Source of the DNA: Actinomycetota bacterium
GTDB lineage: Bacteria; Actinomycetota; Acidimicrobiia; IMCC26256; VFJJ01
Length of the DNA: 64,000 nt
Assembly (NCBI GenBank): GCA_009886115.1
Contig: VFJJ01000045.1
Span: 2,224-66,223 of the forward strand
Reading direction: 5' to 3'
A program made the position numbers and the translations under genes. This document shows, one piece after another, positions 27,176 to 64,000 of this stretch. The notes below the pieces were generated by a model. The model was not told where the DNA came from. It did no database searches and worked only from the letters and a program-made list of their open reading frames with translations. Numbering within the stretch: position 1 is the first letter of the stretch; each line of letters starts with the position of its first letter.

Positions 27176-29703
<2,528 letters not shown>

Positions 29704-48160: not shown

Positions 48161-48277
48161 GGTGGATCGTGGCTGCATGGTGCATCGTGGGCTCAGGATG
48201 CGATCCCGACAAGGGCGTGGCGATCCTGGGAGTGGCACTCCCAGGCAGCCGGCGGCCGGCGCGTTCACAATGGGTTC

Positions 48278-49114: not shown

Positions 49115-49175
49115 TTCTCGCCCCGGTTTTCGGTCGGTCACACCGAATCGCGGTCGTGTACGCTCTGCGCCGCCT

Positions 49176-49248
49176 GCGCTCGTAGCTCAACGGATAGAGC
49201 ATCTGACTACGGATCAGAAGGTTGGGGGTTCGAGTCCCTCCGAGCGCG
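49176..49248 (+). tRNA. tRNA-Arg (anticodon ACG), no encoded CCA
   Basis: Acceptor GCGCTCG/CGAGCGC, D-arm GCTC-AACGGATA-GAGC, anticodon stem TCTGA/TCAGA with loop CTACGGA, T-arm GGGGG-TTCGAGT-CCCTC, discriminator G. Folded by eye. Confidence 0.9.
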
Positions 49249-49250
49249 CT
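49207..49250 (+). repeat. attL core: 44-bp direct repeat covering the tRNA-Arg anticodon loop to its 3' end
   Basis: CTACGGATCAGAAGGTTGGGGGTTCGAGTCCCTCCGAGCGCGCT is identical at 49207-49250 and 61508-61551, compared base by base. A further shared AAGTCCAGGT lies 4 nt downstream of both copies. Confidence 0.9.
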
Positions 49251-49307
49251 ACACAAGTCCAGGTCAGAGAGCTGTTGGAGGCTCTCGCTGGATGGTGTCA
49301 CACCTCT

Positions 49308-49341
49308 GTGAGAAGATTCTGAGAAGATCCCGTCTTCTCAC
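49308..49341 (+). promoter_or_regulatory. candidate integrase arm-type binding sites (P' arm): GAGAAGA motif twice direct and once inverted
   Basis: GTGAGAAGATTCTGAGAAGATCCCGTCTTCTCAC. The first 25 nt recur at 61359-61383 with one mismatch. Confidence 0.45.
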
Positions 49342-49359
49342 GACTCGGGGGTGGCGCTG

Positions 49360-50514
49360 ATGCCCAAGTTCCAGGGCGTGTACCAGGACCGCCGCGGGGG
49401 CTGGTACTTCAAGGCGTCGTCGCACAAGGACCCGCTCACCGGTCGCTGGCACCAGATCACCCGGCGCGGGTTCATCACGGCCGCCGACGCTTCGCGGGCC
49501 CGTGCCTCGTTCGTGGCCGAGTTGGAGGCGTCGCCACCTGCGGCCGCGCTCGCGGGCTTGACGGTCGCCGAGCTCGTCGACGCGTACCTCGATGACGCCT
49601 CGTCTGGTGGCCTCCTCTCGGCCAAGACCCTGTTCGACTACCGGCACTACGCCACCCACTACATCGGCCCGTACCTCGGGACGAAGCTGGTGCGTGATCT
49701 CGACGCCGAGACGATCGCCGCATGGCAGCGAGCGCTCACCAAGGGCGGCGGGGCCAAGACCGGCAAGAGCCTCTCGGCCAACACCGTCCGCATCGCCCGG
49801 GCGCCGCTGGCCGGGGCGCTCAAGTACGCGGTGAGCCGGGGGATCCTCAAGGCGAACCCGATGGTGTCGATCCCCCCGCCGCGCATTCCGAAGAAGATCC
49901 CGCAGCACTGGTCGCCCGAGCAGGCCCGGGAGTTCTTGGCCCTGCACGAGGGGGACCGGCTGTTCCCGGTGTGGGCGTTCCTGCTGGGATCGGGCCTGCG
50001 CATCGGCGAGCTGGTGTCGCTCCGCTGGCCCAACGTCGAGCTCGACCGCCGGCTCGTCCGCGTGCACGAGTTCGCCACCGTGCTCGGCTACGAGGTGGTG
50101 CGATCGGGCGGGAAGTCCCGAGATGCTGTCCGCACGGTCGACGTCGACGAGCACCTGGTGCGGGTGCTCCGCCAGCACCGCAAGACCCAAGCGGCTGAGG
50201 CGCTCGCGACCGCCGACTACGAGGCCAGCGACTACGTGTTCACGCGAGCTGGCGGCGGGCCGTATCACCCGCAGACGCTCTCGAAGGTTCTCGTTCGAGC
50301 GAGCGTCGCGGCGGGCCTTCCCCGGTTGACGGCCCACGGCCTGCGCCACACGAGCGCCACCCTGATGTTGGCGAGCGGAGTCGCACCCAAGGTCGCGGCC
50401 GAGCGCCTCGGCCACGCCGACACCACCCTGTTCTCGAACCTCTACAGCCACGTCACGCCCACCATGCAACGCGAAGCCGCCGAACGCATCGGCGACACGC
50501 TGTTCGGGGTCTGA
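49360..50514 (+). CDS. tyrosine-type site-specific integrase
   Basis: C-terminal catalytic region LRIGELVSLRW (Arg), HGLRHTSATLML (H-x-x-R), LGHADTTLFSNLYSHV (His/Tyr). ATG at 49360 (MPKFQGVY); the track start is the GTG at 49351. Confidence 0.92.
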   Translation: MPKFQGVYQDRRGGWYFKASSHKDPLTGRWHQITRRGFITAADASRARASFVAELEASPPAAALAGLTVAELVDAYLDDASSGGLLSAKTLFDYRHYATHYIGPYLGTKLVRDLDAETIAAWQRALTKGGGAKTGKSLSANTVRIARAPLAGALKYAVSRGILKANPMVSIPPPRIPKKIPQHWSPEQAREFLALHEGDRLFPVWAFLLGSGLRIGELVSLRWPNVELDRRLVRVHEFATVLGYEVVRSGGKSRDAVRTVDVDEHLVRVLRQHRKTQAAEALATADYEASDYVFTRAGGGPYHPQTLSKVLVRASVAAGLPRLTAHGLRHTSATLMLASGVAPKVAAERLGHADTTLFSNLYSHVTPTMQREAAERIGDTLFGV

Positions 50515-50516
50515 CG

Positions 50517-51671
50517 ATGGCTGCCCAACGAGTCCGCGTCGAGGCCCCGGTTGCGCTGTACGAATGGGCGATCGAACGGTCGCGCGTCGATCGTGAGGGC
50601 TTGGCGCGCCGATTCCCAAAGCTGAGGGACTGGTTGGCGGGCGAGGCCCCTCCGACCCTCAAGCAGCTCGAAGCGTTCGCTCGGGCGACGCACACGCCGA
50701 TCGGATTCTTCTTCCTCACCGAGCCGCCGGTCGAGCCCATGCCGATACCGGACTTCCGCACGATCGGCGACCGCACCGTCGCGCGGCCGAGCGCCGACCT
50801 GCTCGACACCATCTACCAGTGCCAGCAACGCCAGGAGTGGTTCCACGACTACGCCCAGGCAAACCGCTTCGACCCGGTGCCCTTCGTTGCGTCGTGCACG
50901 CTCGACTCCACGGTTGCCGAAGCTGCGGCGCATATGCGAGAGGTGTTGTCGTTCAGCGTCGATGAGCGTGGCTCGAGCTGGGGTGACGCATTCGCTCGGC
51001 TTCGTGAGCACGCCGAGGAAGTTGGCGTGCTCGTGATGGTCAACGGTGTCGTCGGGTCGAACACCCATCGCAAGCTCGACCCCGATGAGTTCCGAGGCTT
51101 CGCGTTGGTCGATCCCTTGGCCCCCTTGGTATTCGTCAACGGGGCCGACACGCGGGCCGCGCAGATCTTCACCCTGGCCCACGAGCTGGCCCACCTCTGG
51201 CTCGGCGAGAGTGCGCTCTCCGACGTGGCTCTCGATGTGGAGAGCACCAACGCGACTGAACGGTGGTGCAACCAGGTCGCGGCCGAGCTTCTGGTTCCGC
51301 TCGTCGATCTGCGCGACCAGTTCGACACTGGACGAGACCTGACCGAGGAGCTCGACCGGCTGGCTCGGCGTTTCCGCGCCAGCACGCTCGTCGTCCTTCG
51401 CCGCGTGCAGGAAGCGGGCTACCTCAGTTGGCCGGCCTACCGAGCGGCGTACACGGCCGAGCGCCAACGAGTGCTCGGCCTGATGGGTGACGGTGGCAGC
51501 GGCGGGAACTTCTACAACACCCAGCCAGTCCGGGTGAGCAAGCTCTTCGCCCGATCCGTGATCGCCAGCACCCTCGAAGGCCACACGCTCTACCGCGACG
51601 CGCTCGACATGCTCGGGTTCAAGAAGATCTCGACCTTCAACGAGCTGGCCGGCCGTCTCGGTGTCGCGTGA
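50517..51671 (+). CDS. ImmA/IrrE-family zinc metallopeptidase with an N-terminal HTH-like domain
   Basis: HExxH in FTLAHELAHLWLGES. The N-terminal region is ..LKQLEAFARATHTPIGFFFL, an XRE-like pattern. It starts 3 nt after the integrase stop, and its own stop overlaps the next gene (51668-51671). Confidence 0.8.
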   Translation: MAAQRVRVEAPVALYEWAIERSRVDREGLARRFPKLRDWLAGEAPPTLKQLEAFARATHTPIGFFFLTEPPVEPMPIPDFRTIGDRTVARPSADLLDTIYQCQQRQEWFHDYAQANRFDPVPFVASCTLDSTVAEAAAHMREVLSFSVDERGSSWGDAFARLREHAEEVGVLVMVNGVVGSNTHRKLDPDEFRGFALVDPLAPLVFVNGADTRAAQIFTLAHELAHLWLGESALSDVALDVESTNATERWCNQVAAELLVPLVDLRDQFDTGRDLTEELDRLARRFRASTLVVLRRVQEAGYLSWPAYRAAYTAERQRVLGLMGDGGSGGNFYNTQPVRVSKLFARSVIASTLEGHTLYRDALDMLGFKKISTFNELAGRLGVA

Positions 51672-52165
51672 TGGCGTACCTGCTCGATGCGAACGTGTTC
51701 ATCCAGGCCAAGAACCTCCATTACGGCTTCGACTTCTGCCCAGCGTTCTGGGACTGGATCGAGCAGGAGAACGCCGGCGGTCGCGTGCTCAGCATCGACC
51801 GGGTGCGCGACGAGCTGATCGGTGGCGACGACGAGCTGGCCGCCTGGGCGGCGGACCGGGCCGGGTTCTTCGTCGAGGCCGACCCCGCGATCATCGCGAG
51901 CCTGCAGGCAGTCAGCCGGTGGGCGAACGGTGCCCGCTACGAGCCGGCGGCGATCGCGACCTTTCTCCAGGTCGCCGACTATTACCTCGTTGCCAGCGCG
52001 CTGGCCCATGAGCACGTGGTCGTCACCCACGAGGTCGTCGCTCACTCCACCAAGAAGATCAAGATCCCGAACGTCTGCATCGCCCTCGGCGTCGGCTGCA
52101 TCACGCCCTACGAGATGCTCCGCAGAGAGCGTGCCCGGTTCGTCCTGGGTCCGACGGCGGCTTGA
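51668..52165 (+). CDS. DUF4411-family PIN-like protein
   Basis: The N-terminus YLLDANVFIQAKNLHYGFDFCPAFWDWI matches the DUF4411 signature from memory. There is a 4-nt overlap with the ImmA gene. Confidence 0.7.
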   Translation: MMAYLLDANVFIQAKNLHYGFDFCPAFWDWIEQENAGGRVLSIDRVRDELIGGDDELAAWAADRAGFFVEADPAIIASLQAVSRWANGARYEPAAIATFLQVADYYLVASALAHEHVVVTHEVVAHSTKKIKIPNVCIALGVGCITPYEMLRRERARFVLGPTAA

Positions 52166-52393
52166 TCACGCGCCGCGCGGGGACTGGCAAGGTTCGATCC
52201 GATGCTCATCGATCCACTGCACGAGCTCACCGGGGTCGAAGCGTACGAAGTGACCTACCTTCACGTACGGGATCCGCTTCTCGGCCACGAGCCGCCGCAC
52301 GTGCCGCAACGAGACGCCCAGGTGCTCAGCCGCGGACGACATGTCGATGAGCGTCGGCAGAGATGCGGCCGCAGCGACCGGCTGAACCAACAT
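52166..52393 (-). CDS. excisionase-family helix-turn-helix DNA-binding protein
   Basis: AAEHLGVSLRHVRRLVAEKRIPYVKVGHFVRFDPGELVQWI is the typical Xis/MerR-like winged HTH. Its stop directly abuts the DUF4411 stop. Confidence 0.8.
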   Translation of the reverse strand: MLVQPVAAAASLPTLIDMSSAAEHLGVSLRHVRRLVAEKRIPYVKVGHFVRFDPGELVQWIDEHRIEPCQSPRGA

Positions 52394-52742
52394 GTCCTAC
52401 AAGGGACACTCCGTGGCTGCCGATGTGACAAGGAACGACCAGTAGGTGAGGCCAGCTTGGTGGCGAAGCCGCTGGCGAGGACCGGTAGGTGGGCCATACT
52501 GTCGCCGTGCGGCGACGGCGCAGGCGACCATCGGCACCACTGCCGACCACGTTTTCACGGCCACGGAACGTGGCGGCTGGAGCCCGACCGTCATCTGGAG
52601 GTCCGCAGGACCTGCAGATGTGTCTCGACGTCTTCGGTGGGAGCATTAGGTGTGGCGTTCATCACGTGCCGTGGGATCGGATGGCCGTTAGCGCTGTCTT
52701 CGGTGACTAGTTGCTTCTGAGTGCGAGATAGAGGGACGTGAC

Positions 52743-54293
52743 GTGAAGAGTGATGACCTGGCCGAGGTTCGGCGGACCTTGTGGAAGGCGGCTGACGAGC
52801 TCCGGGCGAACTCCACGCTCACACCGGCGGATTACCGGAGCCCGGTGCTCGGGTTGATCTTCCTCGCCTACGCCGAGCACCGCTTCGAGGCCGTCCGGGC
52901 CGACGTCGAGGCCGGTGCCACCGCTCGCAACCCAGTGTCGCCCGACAACTACCGCGCCCGATCGGTGCTGTTCGTACCCGACGAGGCACGGCTGTCGGGC
53001 CTCGTCGACCTCCCCGAGGGCGAGAACCTCGGAGCCGCGGTCGACGCCGCCATGAAGGCCGTCGAGGCCGCCAACCCCGAGCTCCGCGACGTTCTGCCGC
53101 GCGGCTATCAGCGCCTCGAGCGCTCGACGCTCACGGAGTTACTCCGGCTTTTCTCCCCGCTGCCCCGCACCCTGTCGGGCGACGCCTTCGGGTTGATCTA
53201 CGAGGACTTCCTGTCCAACTTCGCCATGGCCGAGGGTCGCCTGGGGGGAGAGTTCTTCACCCCGTACTCCATCGTCCGTCTCATCGTGGAGATCATCGAG
53301 CCGTACCACGGCAAGGTCTATGACCCGGCGTGCGGGTCGGGCGGCATGTTCGTGCAGTGCGCCAAGTTCGTGGAGCGCCACGCCGGCTCGGCCACCCAGG
53401 AGCTGTCCGTCTACGGCCAAGAGCAGAAGGAGGTCACCGTCCCGCTGGCCAAGATGAACCTCGCCCTCCACGGTCTGTCGGGCGACATCCGCCTGGCCAA
53501 CAGCTACTACGAGAGTCTCCACGATGCCGTCGGCCGGTTCGACTTCGTCATGGCCAACCCGCCGTTCAACGTGAACGGTGTCGACAAGGACAAGCTCGCC
53601 GGCGATCCGCGGTTCCCGTTCGGCCTCCCCAGGACCGACAACGGCAACTACCTCTGGATCCAGCAGTTCTACGCCGCCTTGAACGACGCCGGCCGCGCCG
53701 GCTTCGTCATGGCCAACTCGGCGGGCGACGCCGGCCACTCCGAGAAGGAGATCCGTCGCAAGCTCGTCGAGTCCGGCGCCGTCGACGTCATGGTGGCCAT
53801 CGGGACCAATTTCTTCTACACCGTCACCCTCCCGGTGACCCTCTGGCTCCTCGACAAGGGCAAGGCCGGCACGGATCGCGAGGACACGGTGCTGTTCATC
53901 GACGCCCGCCACACGTACCGCCAGATCGACCGCGCCCACCGCGACTTCCTTCCGGAGCAGATCGAGCTGCTGGCCAACGTCGTCCGTCTCTACCGTGGCG
54001 AGGACGTCACGACCGTCGATGGCAGCATCGCCCTGTTGAAGGAGCGGTTCCCCGACGGGACCTACGCCGACGTTCCGGGCTTCTGCAAAGTGGCCACTCG
54101 GGCCGAGATCGAGGCGCAAGGATGGAGCCTCAACCCCGGGCGCTACACCGGCACCGCAGCGGCCGACGCCGACGACGAGGACTTCACCGAGAAGCTCGAG
54201 AGCCTCTACGAGGAGTTCACGCGTCTCAGCAACGAAGCCGACACCCTCCGCGCCAAGGTCGATGCTGCCATCACAGGGGTCTTGAGCGAATGA
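52743..54293 (+). CDS. hsdM: type I restriction-modification system DNA methyltransferase subunit
   Basis: N-terminal HsdM domain LWKAADELR......YR.PVLGLIFL, AdoMet motif VYDPACGSGGMF, catalytic FVMANPPFN. GTG start at 52743. Confidence 0.93.
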   Translation: MKSDDLAEVRRTLWKAADELRANSTLTPADYRSPVLGLIFLAYAEHRFEAVRADVEAGATARNPVSPDNYRARSVLFVPDEARLSGLVDLPEGENLGAAVDAAMKAVEAANPELRDVLPRGYQRLERSTLTELLRLFSPLPRTLSGDAFGLIYEDFLSNFAMAEGRLGGEFFTPYSIVRLIVEIIEPYHGKVYDPACGSGGMFVQCAKFVERHAGSATQELSVYGQEQKEVTVPLAKMNLALHGLSGDIRLANSYYESLHDAVGRFDFVMANPPFNVNGVDKDKLAGDPRFPFGLPRTDNGNYLWIQQFYAALNDAGRAGFVMANSAGDAGHSEKEIRRKLVESGAVDVMVAIGTNFFYTVTLPVTLWLLDKGKAGTDREDTVLFIDARHTYRQIDRAHRDFLPEQIELLANVVRLYRGEDVTTVDGSIALLKERFPDGTYADVPGFCKVATRAEIEAQGWSLNPGRYTGTAAADADDEDFTEKLESLYEEFTRLSNEADTLRAKVDAAITGVLSE

Positions 54294-55573
54294 GCGAGTG
54301 GCGGGACGTCGTGCTCGGCGACCTGTGCGAGCGAGTCACGGTAGGGCACGTAGGGAGGATGTCCGATCGGTACGTAGATGATGGAGTGCCCTTCCTCCGA
54401 TCTCAGAACATCAAGCCGTTCGTGATCGATCGCAACGGCATGCTTCGGGTAGACGAGGACTTCCATCGGAAGCTCGCCAAGTCGAGGCTCGCCGCCGGAG
54501 ACGTAGTCGTCGTTCGCACGGGCTATCCGGGAACCGCAGCCGTGGTCCCATCCGACCTCGATGGCTCGAACTGCGCGGACCTTGTGGTCATCACCCCAGG
54601 CGAAGATCTCAACCCACACCTACTCGCCGCAGTCTTCAACTCGAGTTGGGGGCGTTCGGCAGTTGGCGGCCACCTGGTCGGTGCGGCTCAACAGCACTTC
54701 AACATCGGCTCAGCCAAGATGCTGCGCCTCCGTCTCCCCTCAAGGCACGAGCAGGACCAGATCGCCGTCGTTCTGTGCGCCCTCCACGATCTGATCGAGA
54801 ACAATCGGCGGCGGGTTGAGGTGCTGGAGGAGATGGCGCGGGCCATCTACCGGGAGTGGTTCGTCCATTTCCGGTACCCGGGCCACGAGGACGTCCCCCT
54901 CGTCGACTCCCCCCTCGGCCCCATCCCCGACGGCTGGCAGATTCGGCGCCTCGATGAGTTCGCGTCGCTCGTTCGTGGACGGTCGTACCGCAAGCACGAA
55001 CTCGTCGACGTCGGTGGTCGCCCCTTCGTGAACCTGAAGTGCATGATGCGCGGGGGAGGCTTTCGGCGGGACGGCCTGAAGCGCTACGACGGGAAGTTCA
55101 CCGAAGCACAGCTTGTGAACCACGGCGATGTCGTACTTGCGGTTACCGACCTCACCCAAGGGCGGGAGATCCTGGCTCGGGCAACACTCGTGCCGCGACT
55201 ACCCGAGCCGGGCGTGATCTCGCTCGACGTAGCGCGCATCGTCCCCGACGAGCCAGCAGATCGACTGTGGTTGTTCGCAGTACTCCGATGGTCGGACTTC
55301 GCCGACCGCGTCAAGGAGTTCGCCAACGGCTCGACGGTCCTCCACCTTTCTCCGGACCATGTGGCGGCCGGCCAGGTCCTATGGCCGCCGGGAGACCTGC
55401 GAGCCTCACTTGCCGCGGCGCTCGACGCGGCGCTTGCGCTCGTGGATGAGCTGCTCGACGGGTCCGATCAACTCACCGGGCTCCGAGACCTCCTCCTTCC
55501 AAAGCTCGTGACCGGGCAGATCGATGTTTCGCATCTAGACCTCGATGCGTTGACCGAGGCGGCGGTGGGGTGA
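54290..55573 (+). CDS. hsdS: type I restriction-modification system specificity subunit
   Basis: Two target-recognition halves separated by a conserved helix (LIENNRRRVEVLEEMARAIYREWFVHFRYPG) and ending with LRDLLLPKLVTGQIDV. ATGA overlap with hsdM. Confidence 0.9.
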   Translation: MSEWRDVVLGDLCERVTVGHVGRMSDRYVDDGVPFLRSQNIKPFVIDRNGMLRVDEDFHRKLAKSRLAAGDVVVVRTGYPGTAAVVPSDLDGSNCADLVVITPGEDLNPHLLAAVFNSSWGRSAVGGHLVGAAQQHFNIGSAKMLRLRLPSRHEQDQIAVVLCALHDLIENNRRRVEVLEEMARAIYREWFVHFRYPGHEDVPLVDSPLGPIPDGWQIRRLDEFASLVRGRSYRKHELVDVGGRPFVNLKCMMRGGGFRRDGLKRYDGKFTEAQLVNHGDVVLAVTDLTQGREILARATLVPRLPEPGVISLDVARIVPDEPADRLWLFAVLRWSDFADRVKEFANGSTVLHLSPDHVAAGQVLWPPGDLRASLAAALDAALALVDELLDGSDQLTGLRDLLLPKLVTGQIDVSHLDLDALTEAAVG

Positions 55574-58500
55574 ACCCACCGGGGCCGTATTCGGAGTCGG
55601 GGCTGGTCGAGGAGCCGGCGCTCGAACTGCTCGCAGAACTCGGCTGGGAGGTCGTCAACGCCTGGAAGGAGTCGTTCGGCCCGGCGGGCACGCTCGGACG
55701 CGACTCGATGCACGAGGTCGTCCTCGTCCACCGTCTCCGAGATGCGATCCGGGTCCTGAACCCCTCCGTTCCGGACCAGATCCGCGAGGAGGGGCTCCAG
55801 GCCGTCACGAAGACGCGGTCGGCGATGGATCGGGTGCGCGCGAACCGCGAGGTGCACGCTTTGCTGCGGGACGGCTACCGCGCCGAGTGGACCGACGATC
55901 AGGGCGGCAAGGCCTACGCCACCGTCCGTTTCGTCGACTTCTCGGACTCGACGAACAACGACTGGCTGGCCGCGTCGCAGGTGTGGTTCGCGAGCGACAT
56001 GTACCGCCGCCGCACCGATGTGGTCCTGTTCGTGAACGGTATCCCGCTGGTGCTGGCCGAGTTCAAGGAGCCGAACCGGAAGGCCAAGGCGGCGTTCGAC
56101 GAGAACATCACCGACTACCGCGACACCATTCCCGACCTGTTCGTCCCCAACGGATTCGTGATCTGTTCCAATGGATCCGAAGCGAAGGTAGGCCCCACCT
56201 TCGCGTCATGGGAGTACTTCGGGGACTGGAAGGTCATCGACGCTGACGGCACCCGTGGTGTCGTCGCGTTGGAGACGGCCATCCAGGGCACCTGCGCCCA
56301 TGACCACCTGCTCGACCTCGTCGAGAACTTCACCGCGTTCATCGAGCGGCCGGGCGGGCTGATCAAGGTCGTGGCTCGCAACCACCAGTTCCTCGGCGTG
56401 AACGCGGCGATCGAGAACCTGCACCGGGTGCGGGCCGCCGGCGAGAAGCGCCTCGGCGTGTTCTGGCACACCCAGGGGTCGGGCAAGAGCCTGTCGATGC
56501 TGTGGTTCACCCAGAAGGTGCTGAGGCGAGTCCCGGGTGCCTGGACGTTCGTCATGGTGACCGATCGCACCGAGCTCGACATCCAGCTCCACGGCGAGTT
56601 CGCCGACGCCGGCGCGATCCCCGCCGAAGCCACCGTGCACGCAACGTCGACCGCTCACCTCCGCGAGCTGCTAGCCGCCGACCATCGCTACGTGTTCACG
56701 CTGATCCACAAGTTCCGCATCGACACCCGGGCCGGGGAGACGACCATGCCGGTGCTGTCGGACCGGTCCGACGTGATCGTGATCACCGATGAAGCTCACC
56801 GCAGCCAGTACGACACGTTAGCGCTGAATATGCGCCAGGCGCTCCCGAACGCTGCGTTTATGGGCTTCACCGGCACGCCGCTCATGTCGGGCGAGGAACT
56901 GACCCGCCAGCAGTTCGGTGACTACGTCACGGTCTACAACTTCCGCGACGCCATCGAGGACGGCTCAACCGTCCCGCTCTACTACGACAACCGGACCCCG
57001 GAGCTCCAACTCGTCAACGAGGACTTCTCCGAGGAACTGACCGCCCTGCTGGAGCAGGCCGAGCTCGACGAGGACGCCGAGGGTCAGCTCGCCCGCCGGT
57101 TCGGTCGGGAGTACACCCTCCTCACCCGCCCCGAGCGCCTGCGCACCATCGCCCGGGACCTAGTGGCGCACTTCGTGGGCCGTGGCTTTACCGGCAAGGC
57201 CATGTACGTCGGGGTCGACAAAGCGGCCGCGGTTCGCATGTACGGCTACGTGCAGGAGGCCTGGGCCGAGCACCGGGCCGAGCTCCAAGCCGCACACGAC
57301 GCCCTCCCGGAGCTGGAGCGGCCATGGCTGGCCAGCCGGCTGGCCCTGATGGACTCCACCGACATGGCGGTGGTCGTGTCACAGGGCCAGAACGAGATCG
57401 CCCAACTCGACGCCAAGGGCCTCGACATCCGCCCGCACCGCAAGCGGATGAACGACGAGGACCTGGCCGAGAGGTTCAAGGCCGCCGACGACCCGTTGCG
57501 GATCGTCTTCGTGTGTGCCATGTGGATGACCGGATTCGACGCCCCGAGCGTGTCGACGATCTACCTCGACCGCCCGATGCGCAACCACACGTTGATGCAG
57601 ACCATCGCCCGAGCGAACCGGGTGTTCCCCGAGAAGGACAACGGCCTGATCGTCGACTACATCGGCGTGTTCCGGAACCTCGAGGCCGCGCTGGCCATCT
57701 ACGGCTCGGCCAACGCCGAGGCCGGCGTGGACACCCCGATCCAACCCGTCGACGCACTTGTCGTCGCCCTCGACGAGCAGATCGAGGTCACCGTCGAGCT
57801 GTGCGCGGCGGCCGGTGTCGACCTTGCGGCGTTGCGAGACGCCACCGGGTTCGAGCACATCGCATTGCGTGACGCTGCCGTCGAGGCGCTGCTGGCCGAT
57901 GACGATCAGCGCGTGGCGTTCCTGGCCGCGGCTCGCCAGGTCCGCAAGCTGTTCAAGGCCCTCCTCCCCGACCCAGCCGCTGCCGCCCAGATGCGGACCG
58001 TGGCCGCGATCCGGGTGCTGGCCGAGCGCCTCCTCGACCTGGCCCGGCCCCCAGCCGCCGACCTCGACGAGCTCGCCGACGCCGTCGACGAATTGCTCGA
58101 CCGATCCGTCGGTGCGGAGGAGTACGTGATCCGCGCCGCAGCCGAGGGGAGCGAGCCCGAGGCGCTCATCGACCTGTCCCGGATCGACTTCGATGCCCTT
58201 GCCGCTCGTTTCGCCGGCCGCAAGCGCGCTGAGACCGATCGGTTGGCGGCCCTGCTCAAGCAACGGGCGGTCGCTGCCGCGACCCGCAATCCGACCCGCT
58301 ACGACCTCGTCGAGCGGATCGAGCAGCTCATCGCGGAGTACAACGCAGGCAGCCTCAACATCGACGAGTACCTCCGGCGCCTGATCGAGCTGTCGCAGTC
58401 ACTGACCGACGAAGAGCAACGAGCGGTCCTCGAGGGCCTCACCGAGGCCGAGCTGGCGATCTTCGACCTGCTCACCAAGCCCGACCCGGTGCTCAGCGAC

Positions 58501-59403
58501 ACCGAACGCACGGTGGTGAAGGCGAGCGCCAAACGCCTCCTCGCCCATCTCCACGACAAGCTCGTCCTGGACTGGCGACGCAAGGCGGCGACGACGGCCG
58601 ACGTGCGAGTGGCGATCCGCCGACTTCTCGATGAGGACCTGCCGGCAGATCCGTACCCGCCGGAGGTGTTCGACACCAAGGTCCAGGCCGTGTTCGACCA
58701 CATCACCTCGGCCTACGGCGACGACGGACGCAGCGTGTACGAGGGCATCTCGGTCGCACCTGCCAGGCCGGCGGGCGGCGTGGGGACGCTTCCGGCCGGG
58801 GCGCTCACCACGTCGGCCCTCACCGAGGAGGTCGTCGAGAAACTCCGTACCGACGCCGAGTTCGTCGCCCTCGTCGCTGAGAAGCTCGGGCTGGTCGGCA
58901 AGCCCGAGCTGCGGACCATCGAGGAGTTGATCGCCAACGACGAGGACTACGCCGTCGAGTTCAAGTCCACCGCCCGTTGGGACCTCCGCGAGAACCAACC
59001 GAGCAAGGCAATCGAGGACGCCATCGTCAAGACCGTGGCCGGCTTCCTCAACACCGACGGCGGGACGCTACTGATCGGGATCGGACCCGACCGCTCAGTC
59101 GTGGGACTGGGCCACGACTACGAACGGGTAAAGCCCAAGAACGGCGACGGCTTCGTCAACTGGCTGACCACCCACCTCGTCCACGCCCTGGGCCACCCGC
59201 CCGTCACCCGGGCCCGCGCCCGCATCGCGATTCACGCGGGCGCAGAGGTCTGCCGTGTCGACGTGGCCGCCTCGCCCGTCCCGGTGCGGGCGAAGACCAG
59301 CAAGGAGGACGGCGTCTTCTACGTCCGGCTCAACAACTCGACGAGAGCGCTGCCGGAGGACGAGGCCGAGGCTTACTGCTCCGAGCACTGGGCTGAACCA
59401 TGA
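55570..59403 (+). CDS. hsdR: type I restriction endonuclease subunit R fused to a C-terminal AlbA_2/Schlafen-like domain
   Basis: N-terminus SESGLVEEPALELLAELGW, helicase motifs WHTQGSGKS (motif I), VIVITDEAHRSQY (DEAH), FMGFTGTP, MQTIARANR. The C-terminal roughly 160 aa, AVEFKST.....I.KTVAGFLNTDGGTLLIGIG.D.SVVGL....FYVRLNNSTRAL, match the AlbA_2 pattern. At 1277 aa the protein is about 200 aa longer than the typical HsdR length I remember. GTGA overlap with hsdS. Confidence 0.88.
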   Translation: MNPPGPYSESGLVEEPALELLAELGWEVVNAWKESFGPAGTLGRDSMHEVVLVHRLRDAIRVLNPSVPDQIREEGLQAVTKTRSAMDRVRANREVHALLRDGYRAEWTDDQGGKAYATVRFVDFSDSTNNDWLAASQVWFASDMYRRRTDVVLFVNGIPLVLAEFKEPNRKAKAAFDENITDYRDTIPDLFVPNGFVICSNGSEAKVGPTFASWEYFGDWKVIDADGTRGVVALETAIQGTCAHDHLLDLVENFTAFIERPGGLIKVVARNHQFLGVNAAIENLHRVRAAGEKRLGVFWHTQGSGKSLSMLWFTQKVLRRVPGAWTFVMVTDRTELDIQLHGEFADAGAIPAEATVHATSTAHLRELLAADHRYVFTLIHKFRIDTRAGETTMPVLSDRSDVIVITDEAHRSQYDTLALNMRQALPNAAFMGFTGTPLMSGEELTRQQFGDYVTVYNFRDAIEDGSTVPLYYDNRTPELQLVNEDFSEELTALLEQAELDEDAEGQLARRFGREYTLLTRPERLRTIARDLVAHFVGRGFTGKAMYVGVDKAAAVRMYGYVQEAWAEHRAELQAAHDALPELERPWLASRLALMDSTDMAVVVSQGQNEIAQLDAKGLDIRPHRKRMNDEDLAERFKAADDPLRIVFVCAMWMTGFDAPSVSTIYLDRPMRNHTLMQTIARANRVFPEKDNGLIVDYIGVFRNLEAALAIYGSANAEAGVDTPIQPVDALVVALDEQIEVTVELCAAAGVDLAALRDATGFEHIALRDAAVEALLADDDQRVAFLAAARQVRKLFKALLPDPAAAAQMRTVAAIRVLAERLLDLARPPAADLDELADAVDELLDRSVGAEEYVIRAAAEGSEPEALIDLSRIDFDALAARFAGRKRAETDRLAALLKQRAVAAATRNPTRYDLVERIEQLIAEYNAGSLNIDEYLRRLIELSQSLTDEEQRAVLEGLTEAELAIFDLLTKPDPVLSDTERTVVKASAKRLLAHLHDKLVLDWRRKAATTADVRVAIRRLLDEDLPADPYPPEVFDTKVQAVFDHITSAYGDDGRSVYEGISVAPARPAGGVGTLPAGALTTSALTEEVVEKLRTDAEFVALVAEKLGLVGKPELRTIEELIANDEDYAVEFKSTARWDLRENQPSKAIEDAIVKTVAGFLNTDGGTLLIGIGPDRSVVGLGHDYERVKPKNGDGFVNWLTTHLVHALGHPPVTRARARIAIHAGAEVCRVDVAASPVPVRAKTSKEDGVFYVRLNNSTRALPEDEAEAYCSEHWAEP

Positions 59404-60071
59404 CGACGCCGCAATTCGGACTGCTGTTCCACTTCACCCACGTCGACAACCTGCCGGCGATCCTCGAAGCGGGCGCACTGTTGAGCGACACGATCGTGGA
59501 GGGACACGGGCTCCTGACGAACGAGGCGGGCGACCCGGCGATCAAGCAGAGGCGCCGCGGTCAGCCGGTGACCTGCTCGCGCGGAGGTTGCGTCGGGGAC
59601 TACGTGCCCTTCTACTTCGCGGCACGCTCGCCGATGATGTACGTCCTCTGGAGGGGGAGCGTGCCGTCGTTCACCGGCGACCACCGTGATCTCGTCTACT
59701 TCGTGGGCCACGTCGATCAGCTGGTGGGCGCGCCGGTGGACTTCGCAATCAGCGATCGGAACGCGGCGAAGGCGTATGCCGCGTTCAGCGACGACCCTCG
59801 CGTGCTCGGTGACCTGGCGGCCCCGGTACCCCAGTCGACGTTCATCGACTGGTCGTTGATGAAGGAGGCAATGTGGAAGGACACGCCGGACGATCCCGAG
59901 CGAATGGAGCGACGGATGGCCGAGTTCCTCGTGCACGGCCAGGTGCCCCTGGAGCTGCTCACCGGAGTAGCCGCGCGGTCGGACGACCGGAAGGCTATGG
60001 TCGAACGCCTGTTCGTGGAGTCGGGGTGTGGGCTGCAGGTGGTCGTCCGGCCCGACTGGTACTACTCGTAG
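59400..60071 (+). CDS. darT: DarT, DNA ADP-ribosyltransferase toxin (DUF4433)
   Basis: LFHFTHVDNLPAIL, GDYVPFYFAARSPMMY, FAISDRNA, RMAEFLVHGQVP (catalytic Glu context), C-terminal RPDWYY. The ATG overlaps the hsdR stop (ATGA at 59400-59403). Confidence 0.88.
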   Translation: MTTPQFGLLFHFTHVDNLPAILEAGALLSDTIVEGHGLLTNEAGDPAIKQRRRGQPVTCSRGGCVGDYVPFYFAARSPMMYVLWRGSVPSFTGDHRDLVYFVGHVDQLVGAPVDFAISDRNAAKAYAAFSDDPRVLGDLAAPVPQSTFIDWSLMKEAMWKDTPDDPERMERRMAEFLVHGQVPLELLTGVAARSDDRKAMVERLFVESGCGLQVVVRPDWYYS

Positions 60072-60084
60072 GATCGGAGTTGAG

Positions 60085-61185
60085 ATGATCCAGGAAGCGC
60101 ACGGGAACCTGCTCGACGCCAAGGCGGACGCCTTGGTCAACACCGTCAACACAGTAGGGGTCATGGGCAAGGGGATCGCCCTGCAGTTCAAGCGCGCATT
60201 CCCCGAGAACTACAAGGCCTACAAGCGCGCCTGCGACCAGGGGGCCGTCGAGCTCGGCCAGATGTTCATCTGGGATGCCGGCGCACTCGCGACCGATGGC
60301 CCGCGGTACATCATCAACTTCCCGACCAAGAAGCACTGGCGGTCGAAGTCGAAGCTGTCCGACATCCGTTCCGGACTCGACGACCTTGTCCGCCAGCTCA
60401 AGGACCTGTCGATCAGCAGCGTCGCCGTTCCGCCGCTGGGCTGCGGCCACGGTGGGCTTCGTTGGGAGGACGTGCGCCCGGTCATCGAGCGCGCCTTCGA
60501 CCAGGTCACCGACGTGCAGGTCCTCCTCTACCCGCCGGAGGGTGCACCCGCATCCGTCGACCAAGCCGTTCGCACCGACCGGCCCAAGATGACCTACGGC
60601 CGAGCGGCTGTGGTCGCCGTCATGGAGCGCTATCTCCCCTTCGCAGTCGACGTCACAGCCGTCGACGTCCAGAAGCTGATGTACTTCATGCAGGAGGCAG
60701 GCGAGCCGCTCAAGCTCGACTTCGCAAAGGGCAGGTACGGCCCGTACGCCGACAACCTTCGGCATGTGCTCCAGGGGATGGAGGGCCACTACATCCGAGG
60801 GACCGGGGATGGCTCGGCGAAGGCACTGGACTCGATCCCGTTCGAGATACTCGACGGTGCGTCCGCGGAGGCGGCCGCTGTGCTCGAAGCGCGCGTTGGC
60901 TCCAACGCCCACCTCGAGGTTGTCGCTCAGCTCATCGAGGGATTCGAGTCGACCTACGGACTCGAACTGCTCGCCACCGTGCACTGGGCATCCTTGCGTG
61001 ACGACGACGAGCACCGCCGGGCGGAGCCGCTAAGGCTCGATCAGGCCGAGCGCGTCGTCGGTTCCTGGAACCGGCGCAAGGAGCGCCTGTTCACGCCGAC
61101 GCACATCGCCAAGGCCTACGAGCGACTCCACGGCCAGGGATGGCTCGATCCACCCGTGCCCACCGGGTTGCTCACCGGCTCCTGA
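60085..61185 (+). CDS. darG: DarG, macrodomain DNA ADP-ribosyl glycohydrolase antitoxin
   Basis: N-terminal macrodomain GNLLDAKADALVNTVNTVGVMGKGIALQFK....Y, VPPLGCGHGGL, then a C-terminal DarT-binding-type domain. Start at ATG 60085 within track ORF 60028..61185. Confidence 0.88.
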   Translation: MIQEAHGNLLDAKADALVNTVNTVGVMGKGIALQFKRAFPENYKAYKRACDQGAVELGQMFIWDAGALATDGPRYIINFPTKKHWRSKSKLSDIRSGLDDLVRQLKDLSISSVAVPPLGCGHGGLRWEDVRPVIERAFDQVTDVQVLLYPPEGAPASVDQAVRTDRPKMTYGRAAVVAVMERYLPFAVDVTAVDVQKLMYFMQEAGEPLKLDFAKGRYGPYADNLRHVLQGMEGHYIRGTGDGSAKALDSIPFEILDGASAEAAAVLEARVGSNAHLEVVAQLIEGFESTYGLELLATVHWASLRDDDEHRRAEPLRLDQAERVVGSWNRRKERLFTPTHIAKAYERLHGQGWLDPPVPTGLLTGS

Positions 61186-61358
61186 CGCGATCTCTCGATG
61201 CCGTCGACGAGATCTGACATGAGCACGAACGCCGGAAGGAAGGACCTCCTTCGTGCGGCGCAGGGACTGTGAACTGAGTCTGGACCAGGCAGCTCACCCG
61301 GCTTCTTGGTCGACGTGTCCCGGAGCCCGATTGGCTGGCGCGGCACGGCACTGTCCCC

Positions 61359-61383
61359 GTGAGAAGATGCTGAGAAGATCCCG
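61359..61383 (+). promoter_or_regulatory. candidate integrase arm-type binding sites (P arm)
   Basis: GTGAGAAGATGCTGAGAAGATCCC matches 49308-49332 at 24 of 25 nt. It lies about 125 nt inside attR. Confidence 0.45.
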
Positions 61384-61507
61384 GCGGCAATCCGGGTAGA
61401 TGCCGGGTAGCGCCGGTCGCTCACCCGAGCGCATCGCCCCCGCTCAGGGGCACCATCAGGCCATCGCGGGCACGCCTGGTCAACCCCGGTCACCACCCAT
61501 CCGCCAC

Positions 61508-61551
61508 CTACGGATCAGAAGGTTGGGGGTTCGAGTCCCTCCGAGCGCGCT
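61508..61551 (+). repeat. attR core: second copy of the 44-bp tRNA-Arg 3' segment
   Basis: Identical to 49207-49250. Confidence 0.9.
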
Positions 61552-61673
61552 GAAGAAGTCCAGGTGGGAGTGTTGTTGGTCCGTTCCCCTGGGCGTCTGG
61601 GAGTCCGTTCTGCATCCTGGTGAGATCCAAAGTTCCGCAGAAGCGCTGCTGAGCGGATCTCACGGGAGGTCGG

Positions 61674-62078
61674 GTGCCCAGGTTCGCGGCGGGCAGCGAG
61701 ACAGCACCGTCGCTCTCCCACAGGTCACCGAGCCTGCCGACCCTCCGATGACATCCGGAACGATCGGATTGGAGATGCGCCAGAGGCCGGCATGCTCGCG
61801 AACCTCGACAGGATACGAACTCGGTGAATCGCCGGGTGGCGCCTCAGGCCGCCAAGACGCTGTTCGACCACCGGCACTACGTCACCCACTCCATTGGCCC
61901 ACACATCTCGGGGCGAAATCCTGCGCGACCTCGACGCCATCGCCTCGTGGCAGCGGGTGCTTGCGCCCCGTTCGGCCACGCCGACGCGACGCTCCTGTCG
62001 ACCCTCTACAGCCGCGTCACCCCGACTATGCGGCGAGAAGCCGCCGATCGCATCGGCCACGCGCTGTTCGGAGGCTGA
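61674..62078 (+). pseudogene. decayed tyrosine-integrase gene (frameshifts plus a large internal deletion), paralogous to 49360..50514
   Basis: Nucleotide similarity to the intact gene was read by eye. GTGCCCAGGTTC parallels ATGCCCAAGTTC. GCCAAGACGCTGTTCGACCACCGGCACTAC parallels GCCAAGACCCTGTTCGACTACCGGCACTAC. The 3' end ...GGCCACGCCGAC...CTCTACAGCC.CGTCAC.CC.AC.ATGC..CG.GAAGCCGCCGA.CGCATCGGC..CACGCTGTTCGG.G..TGA is retained, but the whole catalytic middle is missing. Confidence 0.8.
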
Positions 62079-62139
62079 GTATCAGCGACGCAGCTCGATT
62101 CATGGTTGCAGATATTGCAGTCGGTGGTACTCTTCGGCT

Positions 62140-62523
62140 GTGTCCGAGTCAGCCCTGACCACCCTCTCCGCCGAGAACCGGTCGCAGCGGGCGGTCGCTC
62201 GTCAGCTCGCCGCACAGGTAGACGACGGCTCGGATCTGGGGCACACGCTCCGGTTGGTGCTCGAGGACGTTGCCAGCGGGAAATCGGTTGTCATCCTCCG
62301 TCCGACGCAGGAGGTCACGCCGACCGAGGCGGCTCGTGTGCTCGGGGTGACCCGCCAGTTCGTCGATCGTCTTTGTGGTGAGGGCGTGCTTGCCTTTCGC
62401 CGGCTGCCCGGCAGCCGTCATCGCAGGATCCTCGTAGCCGACGTGCTCGCCATTGCGGCTGAGCGTGATCGGCGTCGTGAGGGTGCCGCCGCCATCCGAT
62501 CGGCGCTCGACGAACCCTCGTGA
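62140..62523 (+). CDS. helix-turn-helix antitoxin-like protein
   Basis: EVTPTEAARVLGVTRQFVDRLCGEGVLAFRRLPGSRHRRI (excisionase-type HTH). I chose the GTG at 62140 after an AT-richer stretch; the start is uncertain. The stop overlaps the PIN start (GTGA at 62520-62523). Confidence 0.6.
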   Translation: MSESALTTLSAENRSQRAVARQLAAQVDDGSDLGHTLRLVLEDVASGKSVVILRPTQEVTPTEAARVLGVTRQFVDRLCGEGVLAFRRLPGSRHRRILVADVLAIAAERDRRREGAAAIRSALDEPS

Positions 62524-62785
62524 AGGAACGTCGGCGCGATCGCGTCTTCGTCGACGCCAACGAGCTGTTCCCGTTTGCGGTGATGGACGTCGTGCTCGCC
62601 TTGGCCGAGGACCTGGTGATCAACTTCATCTGGTCCGAGGAGCTCCTCGACGAGTGGGAGCGCGTCATCGTTCGTGAGGGCAAGCGCACGGCCGAAAGCG
62701 CCCGGTCCGTGGTTCAGGCCGTTCGGTCCTACTTCGGCTCCGGCCGCATCGACCCGGCTGCGTATCGGGACCAAGTTGCTCGCAC
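62520..62785 (+). pseudogene. PIN-domain toxin gene, 3'-truncated
   Basis: The N-terminus RVFVDANELFPFAVMDVVLALAE.....IWSEELLDEWERV is PIN-like. After about 88 codons the reading frame runs into a 67-nt fragment homologous to the ImmA gene and then into Arg/Pro-rich nonsense. Confidence 0.6.
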
Positions 62786-62852
62786 TACCAGTGCCAGCAA
62801 CGCCAGGAGTGGTTCCACGATTACGCCCAGGCCAACCGCTTCGACCCGGTGC
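62786..62852 (+). repeat. 67-nt fragment of an ImmA/IrrE gene (65 of 67 nt identical to 50814-50880)
   Basis: TACCAGTGCCAGCAACGCCAGGAGTGGTTCCACGA(T/C)TACGCCCAGGC(C/A)AACCGCTTCGACCCGGTGC, compared by eye. Confidence 0.85.
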
Positions 62853-63269
62853 ACGACGCGCCCTCGACCGAGCCGACCACCGCATCGGCCAGCTCGTCGC
62901 CGACGGCAATCGCCGTGCCGAGCGGCTGCCGGCCTGGCGGCGCTGGCAGGACCAGTTCTCGGACGCTGCCGATCGGCTGCGGAGCATCGACGAGCGGATC
63001 GCCCGGACCGAGATGGGTCAAGGCGTTGGGCCCGACGGGTCCGCCACGCCGGGGCAGATGTCGGGGTCGATCTCGGCCCATAGGCCGCACCCGTCACGCC
63101 GCTCTCGTACTCTTGGCGCACCAACCCGAACGCCGGTGGGGAAGCACATCGTGGACTGGTCCACCCGACGGCCGAGGACTGCTCGGCTGGAAGTGCCTCG
63201 GCACCCGGGCGCTGTTCGTGAGCGCGGTCGACCTCAACCTGGGGGAAGCGCCACCGGCTGGAGACCAAG

Positions 63270-63617
63270 ATGGCGCTCCCTGAGACCGACGTGGCTCGCG
63301 TTCGCCGGTGGGTCGACGCTCGCAACGAACGCCTTCCCGAACGAGCTGTCGGCCAGATCCGCTACGAGATGGACGTCGACCCGCGGGCGATCACCATCCT
63401 GGAGTGCCGGCCGCCGTGGCGTGAGGACTTCGGGCCTGAGTGAACTCGGTTCCCCGTCGCCCGCCTTCGGTACACGAAGGTGCGGCGGGAGTGGGAGATC
63501 TACGGGCGGGATCGGAACCTCAAGTTCCGTGCCTACGACCTCGTCCCGCCCACGCCGAACGTCGAGACGCTGCTGGCGGAGATCGACGCCGACCCGACGT
63601 GCATCTTCTGGGGCTGA
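63270..63617 (+). pseudogene. DUF3024-family gene interrupted by an in-frame TGA at 63441-63443
   Basis: MALPETDVARVRRWVDARNE...ITILECRPPWREDFGPE-TGA-TRFPVARLRYTKVRREWEIYGRDRNLKFRAYDLVPPTPNVETLLAEIDADPTCIFWG stays in one frame. As I remember the family, the TGA sits where homologues have Trp (GPEW). Confidence 0.65.
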
Positions 63618-63808
63618 CCGGGGAGCGGGTTGGCTTCCGGACGGGTGCGGGCTCGAGTCGACAGAGCCGCTCGGTTCGCTTCATCGCCGACCACAGTCAG
63701 CGACCCGGGAGTCGAAGCCGGAGCATGATGAGACCTCGAAGTCACACAAATCTATAGGTACAGACATCTGTGGCGTTTGAAACTCAAGTTTCGATGTAGG
63801 ATTAGCGC

Positions 63809-64000
63809 GTGCCCGCCCACCGTCGTGACCTCCGCCGCCGCTTGTTCGGGCTCGCTGCGGATCAAGGCGGCTACTTCACGGCGGCGCAGGCCAAGGAGTT
63901 CGGGTACTCCTACCAAGCGCAGGCCCACCACGTGCGTGCCGGGAACTGGCTGCGCATCGACCGGGGCATCTTCCGCCTGGCCGAGTGGCTCCCGGGGCTC
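63809..64000 (+). CDS. AbiEi-family (type IV TA antitoxin / transcriptional regulator) N-terminal part; the 3' end lies outside the window
   Basis: VPAHRRDLRRRLFGLAADQGGYFTAAQAKEFGYSYQAQAHHVRAGNWLRIDRGIFRLAEW matches the AbiEi_4 N-terminal pattern. It is preceded by a distinctly AT-richer 70-nt stretch. Confidence 0.7.
   Translation, partial: MPAHRRDLRRRLFGLAADQGGYFTAAQAKEFGYSYQAQAHHVRAGNWLRIDRGIFRLAEWLPGL

Follow-up and report, generated by a model that had tools for sequence, protein, structure and literature searches.

The cluster of five genes considered here, hsdM-hsdS-hsdR-darT-darG, occupies positions 52743–61185 of a 64,000-nucleotide (nt) stretch of contig VFJJ01000045.1 from an Actinomycetota bacterium; this whole stretch is referred to below as the window. 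The first three genes have the content of a type I restriction–modification (R-M) system whose restriction subunit, HsdR, ends in a predicted Schlafen/AlbA_2 domain, and the last two have the features of a DarTG toxin–antitoxin (TA) pair. We consider it likely that the hsdMSR genes, with the AlbA_2-bearing hsdR, form a widespread, self-contained cassette, the cargo of an island of about 12.3 kb that is integrated at tRNA-Arg(ACG) in an uncultured Acidimicrobiia host, that a DarTG2 module was joined to this cassette at the hsdR stop codon in one sub-lineage, and that the five genes would be expressed from a single transcript with synthesis of the toxin coupled to that of HsdR.

In this mechanism, one transcript would run from the 349-nt region upstream of hsdM through darG. 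Ribosomes would reach darT mainly by terminating on the TGA of hsdR and restarting at the overlapping ATG, so that little toxin would be made, and darG, with a GGAG site of its own, would be produced in excess. From what is known of these families, the R-M complex is expected to methylate host DNA and to cut unmodified incoming DNA. A phage escaping restriction would then encounter DarT, which would ADP-ribosylate thymidines in single-stranded DNA and block replication, as in other DarTG2 systems. In uninfected cells, DarG would reverse the modification and sequester DarT.

Gene content and junctions of the cluster

All five genes are intact and lie compactly on one strand, as judged from the list of open reading frames (ORFs) and a reading of the sequence (Table 1). 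An earlier note on this DNA, made from its letters alone, had described the same five genes with three 4-nt overlaps, and its description agrees with the coordinates, family matches and motifs obtained here. The stop/start overlaps are ATGA at 54290–54293 between hsdM and hsdS, GTGA at 55570–55573 between hsdS and hsdR, and ATGA at 59400–59403 between hsdR and darT, where the ATG of darT lies over the TGA of hsdR. The distance of 13 nt from darT to darG (60072–60084) was also given correctly; darT stops with TAG at 60069–60071, and the GGAG at 60076–60079 lies 5 nt before the ATG of darG.

The start of darT is unambiguous: no other start codon lies between it and the preceding in-frame stop, and there is no alternative before the essential FHFTH motif (residues 10–14). 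For darG, the longest ORF opens with GTG at 60028, and similarity to solved DarG proteins begins only at the Met of 60085; the start was therefore set at the latter codon, which is also preceded by a ribosome-binding site. The word "fused", used in the earlier note for the two systems, applies only to the arrangement of the genes, since a stop codon separates hsdR from darT and the two are not read in the same frame. A true HsdR–DarT protein fusion is thus ruled out.

The first module carries the expected motifs of a type I system. HsdM contains DPACGSGG at residue 194, which binds S-adenosylmethionine, and NPPF at residue 272, the catalytic (N/D)PP(F/Y) motif. HsdR contains LAEFK at residue 162, within the N-terminal PD-(D/E)xK nuclease region, as well as GSGKS at 303 and DEAH at 407, both belonging to the superfamily 2 ATPase. 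HsdS is conserved in relatives only centrally (about 54750–54950) and at its 3′ end, the target-recognition parts being variable. By gene content and motifs, hsdM-hsdS-hsdR can be assigned firmly to the type I R-M systems, with methylation and cleavage as predicted activities.

The second module can be classified from its residues and domains. The closest solved structure to DarT is that of Mycobacterium tuberculosis DarT (7YK3, 5e-32), and Thermus DarT also matches (7OMV, 5e-22). Residues R52, Y72, M79 and E175 align with R51, Y71, M78 and E160 of the Thermus enzyme, which are its NAD-binding and catalytic residues (PMC9967889). At the positions of Thermus H65 and H119, the window protein has G66 and N121; M. 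tuberculosis DarT likewise lacks histidine at both, with Ser and Asn in their place. The macrodomain of DarG matches the DarG proteins of M. tuberculosis (5M3I, 2.9e-55) and T. aquaticus (5M31, 4.4e-53), and a conserved PTKKHW at residues 80–85 holds the catalytic Lys (K80 in T. aquaticus) and the stacking Trp. Moreover, residues 169–348 match chain B of 7YK3, which is M. tuberculosis DarG crystallised together with DarT (1.3e-31).

The nature of the antitoxin, macrodomain or NADAR, is the criterion that separates DarTG2 from DarTG1 (PMC11543638). Because the antitoxin here is a two-domain macrodomain protein, the pair falls into the thymidine-modifying DarTG2 class, and the guanine-specific DarTG1 class, with its NADAR antitoxin, was rejected. 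Toxin residues, macrodomain, C-terminal domain and gene order all agree with DarTG2; the toxicity of DarT and its reversal by DarG are predicted on these grounds. The order darT before darG, with a short spacer, also recurs in most of the 80 related loci described below. The M. tuberculosis pair (Rv0059/Rv0060) resembles that of the window in that its DarG combines a macrodomain with a C-terminal DarT-binding domain. It differs in its surroundings, as it adjoins dnaB and is not known to be linked to R-M genes or to lie on a tRNA island.

A mobile cassette with a variable slot behind hsdR

Relatives of the cluster were sought from both of its ends. A protein search with the C-terminal 237 residues of HsdR returned 553 homologues, and the hsdM-hsdS-hsdR(AlbA_2) cassette was recovered in 24 metagenomic loci and in 3 further loci behind apparently stand-alone AlbA_2 proteins. 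Such proteins turned out not to stand alone: P0015 and P0072 are pieces of frameshifted or fragmented hsdR (in the loci L081 and L082), and P0023 is a 3′ remnant of hsdR beside an IS110 transposase gene. Across the relatives, HsdM and HsdR are mostly 77–89% identical to those of the window, and HsdS is 28–44% identical in most, with partial matches reaching 62–79% in L081, L082 and L088.

The borders of this similarity are sharp. In blastn comparisons with 17 related cassettes, homology starts at about 52721–52759 (mostly 52731–52744), at or just before the ribosome-binding site of hsdM, and the 349-nt region upstream of hsdM is not conserved. At the other side, nucleotide homology ends at 59357–59420, around the hsdR stop, in loci without darTG, and at 61148–61185 in L001, L002 and L089. 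These abrupt boundaries suggest that hsdMSR is a discrete module lying under differing upstream sequences, to which darTG is an add-on. In one relative (L103; 440–788, 1039 onward), the cassette begins about 250 nt after a tmRNA gene and not in a tRNA-Arg island, which indicates that it moves between integration sites.

What follows hsdR varies from locus to locus. About 18 of the 20 relatives with at least 1 kb of sequence downstream of hsdR lack darTG, and dar genes occur only in L086 and L089. Elsewhere, the same place is occupied by a SIR2_2 gene, with its start overlapping the stop of hsdR, together with DUF4209/DUF7380 (L085, 3320–6271), a TIR_2 gene (L097, 7906–8775), an ApeA-type HEPN gene on the minus strand (L103, 7770–9167), a DEAD-box helicase gene (L087, 7844–11392; L099, 795–3038, minus strand) or an unknown gene of 395 amino acids (aa; L090); other relatives have nothing recognisable there. 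Judged by these gene contents, the position downstream of this hsdR is a general variable slot for predicted defence cargo.

The variety of unrelated cargo in the slot, and the many cassettes that do without darTG, suit a different explanation, in which darTG is an independent TA cassette that occupies the slot, is driven from a promoter within the last part of hsdR, and shares with hsdR an overlap that reflects compaction only, with no functional link. We hold this to be possible, if on the unlikely side.

The survey from the DarT side bears on it in two directions. With one genome taken per species, 365 relatives were collected, and the 80 closest loci were examined together with flanks of at most 10 kb, hsd neighbours being sought by tblastn and by an iterated hidden Markov model search. 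At least 6 of the 80 have hsd genes nearby, a count that is a lower bound because the sequence upstream of darT is shorter than 3 kb in about 13 contigs; the other 74, in agreement with an independent cassette, show none in the sequence available up to 10 kb away. Against independence, 6 of 80 lies far above the estimated chance, roughly 0.5%, of meeting hsd genes in a random 20-kb window. The earlier note had stated that DarTG is found with type I R-M genes elsewhere, which this count bears out alongside published examples (PMC5179494, PMC12255303).

Two of the six loci, L001 (a metagenome-assembled genome (MAG) of Acidimicrobiales) and L002 (a MAG of Actinomycetota), repeat the gene order of the window, including its HsdR-AlbA_2 protein, and their three junctions are likewise 4-nt overlaps. 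In the remaining four, the two systems again share one cluster, and darTG is embedded: it lies between hsdS and hsdR in L034, L063 and L065, and between hsdM and hsdS in L047. Stop/start overlaps are found in three of these four, at hsdM/darT and darG/hsdS in L047, at darG/hsdR in L034 and at hsdS/darT in L063. The use of such overlaps in independent hsd-darTG architectures is a further argument against a mere cargo-slot neighbour. In the embedded loci, darTG interrupts the hsd order, whereas in the window it is appended to a contiguous hsdMSR; it is this appended position that would couple the toxin to the R subunit. A survey for darT overlapping hsdR in other genomes, which the earlier note had proposed, thus yields four related loci, as the 4-nt hsdR/darT overlap of L001 and L002 is also present in L086 and L089.

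The latter two loci show the modules coming apart. In L089 (5129–8743), a tRNA-Arg gene is followed only by the last 1.4 kb or so of hsdR (about 455 codons), an intact darT with the ATGA overlap, and darG. The integrase, hsdM, hsdS and two-thirds of hsdR have been lost, so that darTG has outlived the R-M system. In L086 (1132–2254), a clean internal deletion of about 570 nt has removed most of darT, with darG and its ribosome-binding site kept directly after the stub; this contig is only 2.3 kb long, and an assembly artefact is possible. Taken together, L089 and L086 indicate that the R-M and DarTG modules can be lost independently and are evolutionarily separable. Hence the "two-layer defence unit" of the earlier note is upheld as a physical joining of the two systems, but not as an obligate one, given the relatives without darTG, the losses in L089 and L086, and the DarT loci without hsd genes.

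The survival of darTG in L089 is also what would be expected of an addictive module, and the pair comes last on a mobile island, separated from attR by 322 nt that contain no gene. DarTG might accordingly serve mainly for addiction instead of providing a second layer against phage: as a post-segregational killer, it would stabilise the island, or else the R-M operon. Stabilisation of this kind was offered as an alternative for DarTG in type I R-M operons by Jankevicius et al. 2016 (PMC5179494). We regard this as rather unlikely. When tested, both DarTG1 and DarTG2 protect directly against phage, as summarised in PMC12255303 and PMC11543638. Furthermore, the SIR2, TIR and HEPN genes found in the slot of relatives are typical abortive-infection effectors and not addiction modules, and addiction appears escapable, since L086 has lost the toxin and kept the antitoxin. 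Addiction and an anti-phage role do not, in any case, exclude each other.

Translation signals at the hsdR/darT junction

The overlaps by themselves carry little weight. The same 4-nt overlap occurs at four other junctions of the window (514/517, 2511/2514, 46126/46129 and 51668/51671, from rough gene calls based on G+C content at third codon positions), and such overlaps are ordinary in this genome, so that the pattern is not special as such. Moreover, every darT examined, including those of the stand-alone loci L003–L006 (around position 10001), starts with ATGACGACG (Met-Thr-Thr), which in the window lies at 59400–59408. Thus the start of darT itself supplies the TGA on which hsdR ends, and any upstream gene entering this start in the right frame terminates on the built-in stop. 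This may make stop/start capture by upstream genes easy. Both the commonness of the overlaps and the intrinsic ATGA favour an independent cassette for which the overlap is compaction.

The ribosome-binding signals point the other way. Shine–Dalgarno (SD) pairing was scored between the anti-SD sequence and the 20 nt that precede each start; the background median is −3.5 kcal/mol. The values are −7.7 kcal/mol for hsdM, −6.2 for hsdS, −9.5 for hsdR, −7.1 for darG and −2.9 for darT, which makes darT the sole gene of the five without SD pairing. The hsdR-linked darT genes of L002, L086 and L089 also lack it (−1.5, −2.5 and −2.7 kcal/mol among them), and the −5.8 of L001 comes from a GGAG at the outermost 5′ edge of this stretch, too distant to be useful. 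The closest stand-alone darT, in L003, has a strong GGGAGG (−10.0). Across about 78 DarTG loci, the median is stronger for darG (−6.9) than for darT (−5.6).

As all five hsdR-linked darT genes lack an SD sequence at a usable distance and overlap the hsdR stop, translational coupling of the toxin to HsdR is a reasonable inference, and the missing SD sequences count against a free-standing cassette. Translation of darT probably depends on ribosomes that complete hsdR, and the SD pattern would fit a design with little toxin and more antitoxin. The earlier note had presented the toxin as a continuation of the restriction subunit: overlap and missing SD site favour the coupling that this implies, and the two remain separate proteins in different frames. 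Its broader picture of one translationally coupled operon is supported by the overlaps and the compact layout, but needs narrowing, because hsdS and hsdR have their own ribosome-binding sites and only darT is without one.

From the stop codon of darT across the 13-nt spacer to about the 50th nucleotide of darG (60069–60135), the window, L001, L086 and L089 have one and the same sequence; in the remainder of darT, protein identity is no higher than about 70% (L089). The identical darT/darG junction may be a constrained translation-initiation region or a recombination joint.

If a promoter for darTG were embedded in the end of hsdR, extra conservation at synonymous sites would be one possible mark of it. 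Over the last 360 hsdR codons of the five darT-linked loci, no peak was found just upstream of darT, with little power from five sequences; values in the last 47 codons are 0.29–0.35, near the low end of the overall range of 0.17–0.70. This, too, argues against the independent cassette. Other scans were uneventful. Terminator-like sites in the cluster are not above chance, with one weak site inside hsdM where 3.9 were expected. The Rfam scan of 48000–64000 found tRNA only and no element inside the cluster, and hairpins after darG (61186–61260) are not better than those of shuffled sequences (z −1.4).

Several observations weigh against a single transcript with a coupled toxin. Among darT genes in general, 41% lack a clear SD, and SD-independent initiation is common in actinobacteria; a missing SD is for these reasons no proof of coupling. 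The search for stable or shared RNA structure that might hide the start of darT was negative (101 nt at the hsdR/darT junction, four loci; z −0.4 to +0.8). A sigma-70 consensus scan of 52000–62000 gave 0 promoter-like sites (0.6 expected), the E. coli-type consensus being a poor test for actinobacteria. Overlapping genes can hold internal promoters, and hsdR of E. coli K-12 has its own. Finally, the intact darTG of L089 lies without the hsdM region, so a promoter other than that of hsdM must be able to serve it, which keeps the internal promoter alive as a rival.

The mechanism could also be drawn more tightly than we have done: a single polycistron would fix the ratios of the restriction enzyme, the Schlafen-type RNase of HsdR and DarT, the toxin would be tied obligatorily to completed translation of HsdR, and DarTG would stand guard over the restriction enzyme, being set off once a phage had inactivated or got past it. 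In this strict form, the proposal seems improbable to us.

The HsdR tail, the island and known precedents

The Schlafen/AlbA_2 domain at the end of HsdR is well defined in the AlphaFold2 model, with a mean predicted local distance difference test score (pLDDT) of 84 and values above 90 across the domain. Foldseek matched the tail to DIP2311, to the DNA-binding/tRNase domain of SAMD9 and to the N-domains of the mammalian Schlafen proteins SLFN13/5/11/12/14. The residues E1125 and E1130 (E-x4-E) and D1183 are invariant in 44/44 homologues, and D1174 is kept in 35/44; the two Asp residues are both candidates for the third member of the acidic catalytic triad. Nearly all of the 553 tail homologues are carried on HsdR, and the fusion occurs both with and without darTG; it therefore belongs to the R-M cassette and is not a link to DarTG.

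A prokaryotic Schlafen domain was shown to cleave tRNA by Weickert et al. 2026 (PMC13462974), who also reported that over half of the defence-linked Schlafen proteins have an R-M or another nuclease system as neighbour, with direct fusions of some to R-M methyltransferases. Like those nucleases, the window protein has an AlbA_2/Schlafen fold in which the acidic E-x4-E motif is invariant; it differs in that the domain sits on the C-terminus of the restriction subunit. An HsdR fusion is not mentioned in the text of that article, from which the word HsdR is absent, and no paper describing an HsdR–Schlafen fusion was found. The modelled fold and conserved acidic residues suggest a restriction enzyme with a built-in second nuclease, whose activity is predicted.

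The cluster is part of an island bounded by a tRNA gene and its repeats. The tRNA-Arg gene, the adjoining integrase and the 72-nt att repeats define a tRNA-integrated island of about 12.3 kb (Table 1), and L001 carries the same att repeat about 660 nt after its darG. Beyond attR lies a degraded second, related island in tandem (remnants at 61851–62078 and 62785–62852), whose integrase and M78-peptidase fragments are 82–97% identical to the first copy. A 25-nt repeat at 49308 and 61359 may be an arm site of the integrase. The M78-peptidase/DUF4411 pair (50517–52165) could be a separate two-gene defence or TA-like module, the peptidase having weak matches to defence regulators of the capP and RmrA types; M78-peptidase genes are also found near the hsd cassettes of L081 and L082. 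As for the host, the best named relatives of its gyrB (27673–29703) are MAGs of Acidimicrobiales/Acidimicrobiia at 66–68% identity, and the best match overall reaches 79%, which indicates that the collections searched contain nothing closely related to the host.

Table 1. Features of the island and of the five-gene cluster, with positions in the window
Feature	Position	Strand	Basis
tRNA-Arg(ACG) gene	49176–49249	+	ARAGORN; Rfam tRNA 69.3 bits
attL repeat, 72 nt	49207–49278	+	90% identical to 61508–61579
Tyrosine integrase	49351–50514	+	Pfam Phage_integrase 3.3e-22, Arm-DNA-bind_4
ImmA/IrrE-type (Peptidase_M78) metallopeptidase	50517–51671	+	Pfam PF06114 7.5e-17; weak PADLOC capP/RmrA-like matches
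DUF4411 protein	51668–52165	+	Pfam PF14367 3.5e-55; start overlaps M78 peptidase stop by 4 nt
Small HTH_17 (excisionase-type) DNA-binding protein, divergent from hsdM	52166–52393	−	Pfam PF12728 1.3e-10; weak PADLOC mad1 7e-5
Intergenic region, 349 nt, presumed operon promoter	52394–52742	+	AGAGGGA ribosome-binding site just before hsdM GTG; no sigma-70 consensus match
hsdM, type I methyltransferase subunit, 516 aa, GTG start	52743–54293	+	Pfam N6_Mtase 3.6e-82, HsdM_N 4.6e-17; PADLOC MTase_I 1.2e-199
hsdS, specificity subunit, 427 aa	54290–55573	+	Pfam Methylase_S; PADLOC Specificity_I 4.6e-58, residues 1–425
hsdR, restriction/translocase subunit, 1277 aa	55570–59403	+	Pfam HSDR_N 2e-39, SWI2_SNF2 1.8e-69, T1R_D3-like, T1RH-like_C 1.8e-37; PADLOC REase_I 9.8e-167
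Schlafen/AlbA_2 domain, HsdR residues 1125–1261	58942–59352	+	Pfam PF04326 (SLFN_AlbA_2) 2.1e-13
darT, predicted DNA ADP-ribosyltransferase toxin, 223 aa	59400–60071	+	Pfam DarT (PF14487) 2.1e-55; PADLOC DarT 8.1e-59
Spacer, 13 nt, GGAG ribosome-binding site for darG	60072–60084	+	sequence
darG, predicted macrodomain antitoxin with C-terminal DarT-binding domain, 366 aa	60085–61185	+	Pfam Macro 9.9e-26; PADLOC DarG 8.1e-131
attR, 72-nt repeat of the 3′ part of tRNA-Arg	61508–61579	+	direct repeat of 49207–49278

The pairing of type I R-M with DarTG is already published. DarTG within type I R-M operons was reported in 2016 by Jankevicius et al. (PMC5179494), who proposed crosstalk between methylation and ADP-ribosylation, or stabilisation of the operon. 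More recently, Zhang et al. 2025 (PMC12255303) described the RRDM island of enteropathogenic E. coli (EPEC) E2348/69, with the order rptR-hsdM-hsdS-darT2-darG2-hsdR-M48. According to that article, the island protects against phages, is repressed at a mapped promoter upstream of rptR, and has in its hsdS/hsdR gap a likely hotspot for defence cargo; in the passages searched, the contributions of R-M and DarTG are not separated. The question of synergy between the two systems is accordingly not a new one.

Like the island of the window, RRDM was acquired horizontally and combines type I R-M genes tightly with a macrodomain-type DarTG2, on one strand and with darT before darG. The differences are several. 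In RRDM, darTG lies between hsdS and hsdR, whereas in the window it follows hsdR. The downstream end of RRDM carries an M48 peptidase gene; in the window there is none, attR follows after 322 nt, and the peptidase is the upstream M78 enzyme. The rptR gene stands first and is co-directional with hsdM, and the only small DNA-binding gene near hsdM in the window is the divergent HTH_17/excisionase gene (52166–52393). Finally, the window has an HsdR with a Schlafen/AlbA_2 domain, an actinobacterial host and a tRNA-Arg integrative element, and RRDM is flanked by insertion sequences. The locus described here is therefore a further example of a known pairing, differing in gene order, type of island, host phylum and HsdR.

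The other precedent is PrrC, a suicide-type effector that is likewise found within a type I cluster, the EcoprrI operon, and provided the classical case of abortive infection as a reserve to restriction. Type I R-M systems are among those that often contain embedded genes, and PrrC is embedded almost exclusively there (Payne et al. 2024). On this pattern, DarTG could be wired to the restriction enzyme as a guard: DarT or DarG would bind the R-M complex, for which the Schlafen domain of HsdR might provide the contact, and phage anti-restriction proteins that disable the enzyme would release DarT. That DarTG recurs with type I operons, inside them or adjacent, and in three or more gene orders, would agree with this, and co-translation in fixed stoichiometry would suit a complex. 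PrrC is, however, an RNase held latent by the R-M complex, with no separate antitoxin, whereas DarT has the enzymatic antitoxin DarG. Most DarTG systems act alone, the closest relatives L003–L006 being without hsd genes, the HsdR–Schlafen fusion is common without darTG, and in L089 darTG persists after loss of the R-M genes.

We know of no contact between DarT and R-M proteins, and consider a physical guard of this kind very improbable. Shared regulation of the two modules, and the succession envisaged in the earlier note, with restriction first and ADP-ribosylation as a back-up, are plausible from what is known of R-M and of DarTG.

The locus thus adds an actinobacterial example of R-M/DarTG association in a different gene order. 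The three states found among its relatives, namely the cassette alone, the cassette with darTG, and darTG after loss of the R-M genes, represent a clean natural system in which a functional unit might be distinguished from neighbours in a cargo slot. The HsdR–Schlafen fusion possibly deserves more attention than the link to DarTG. As for the toxin itself, a gene without an SD sequence, attached to a long upstream gene, would provide a simple rule for keeping the dosage of a dangerous enzyme low.

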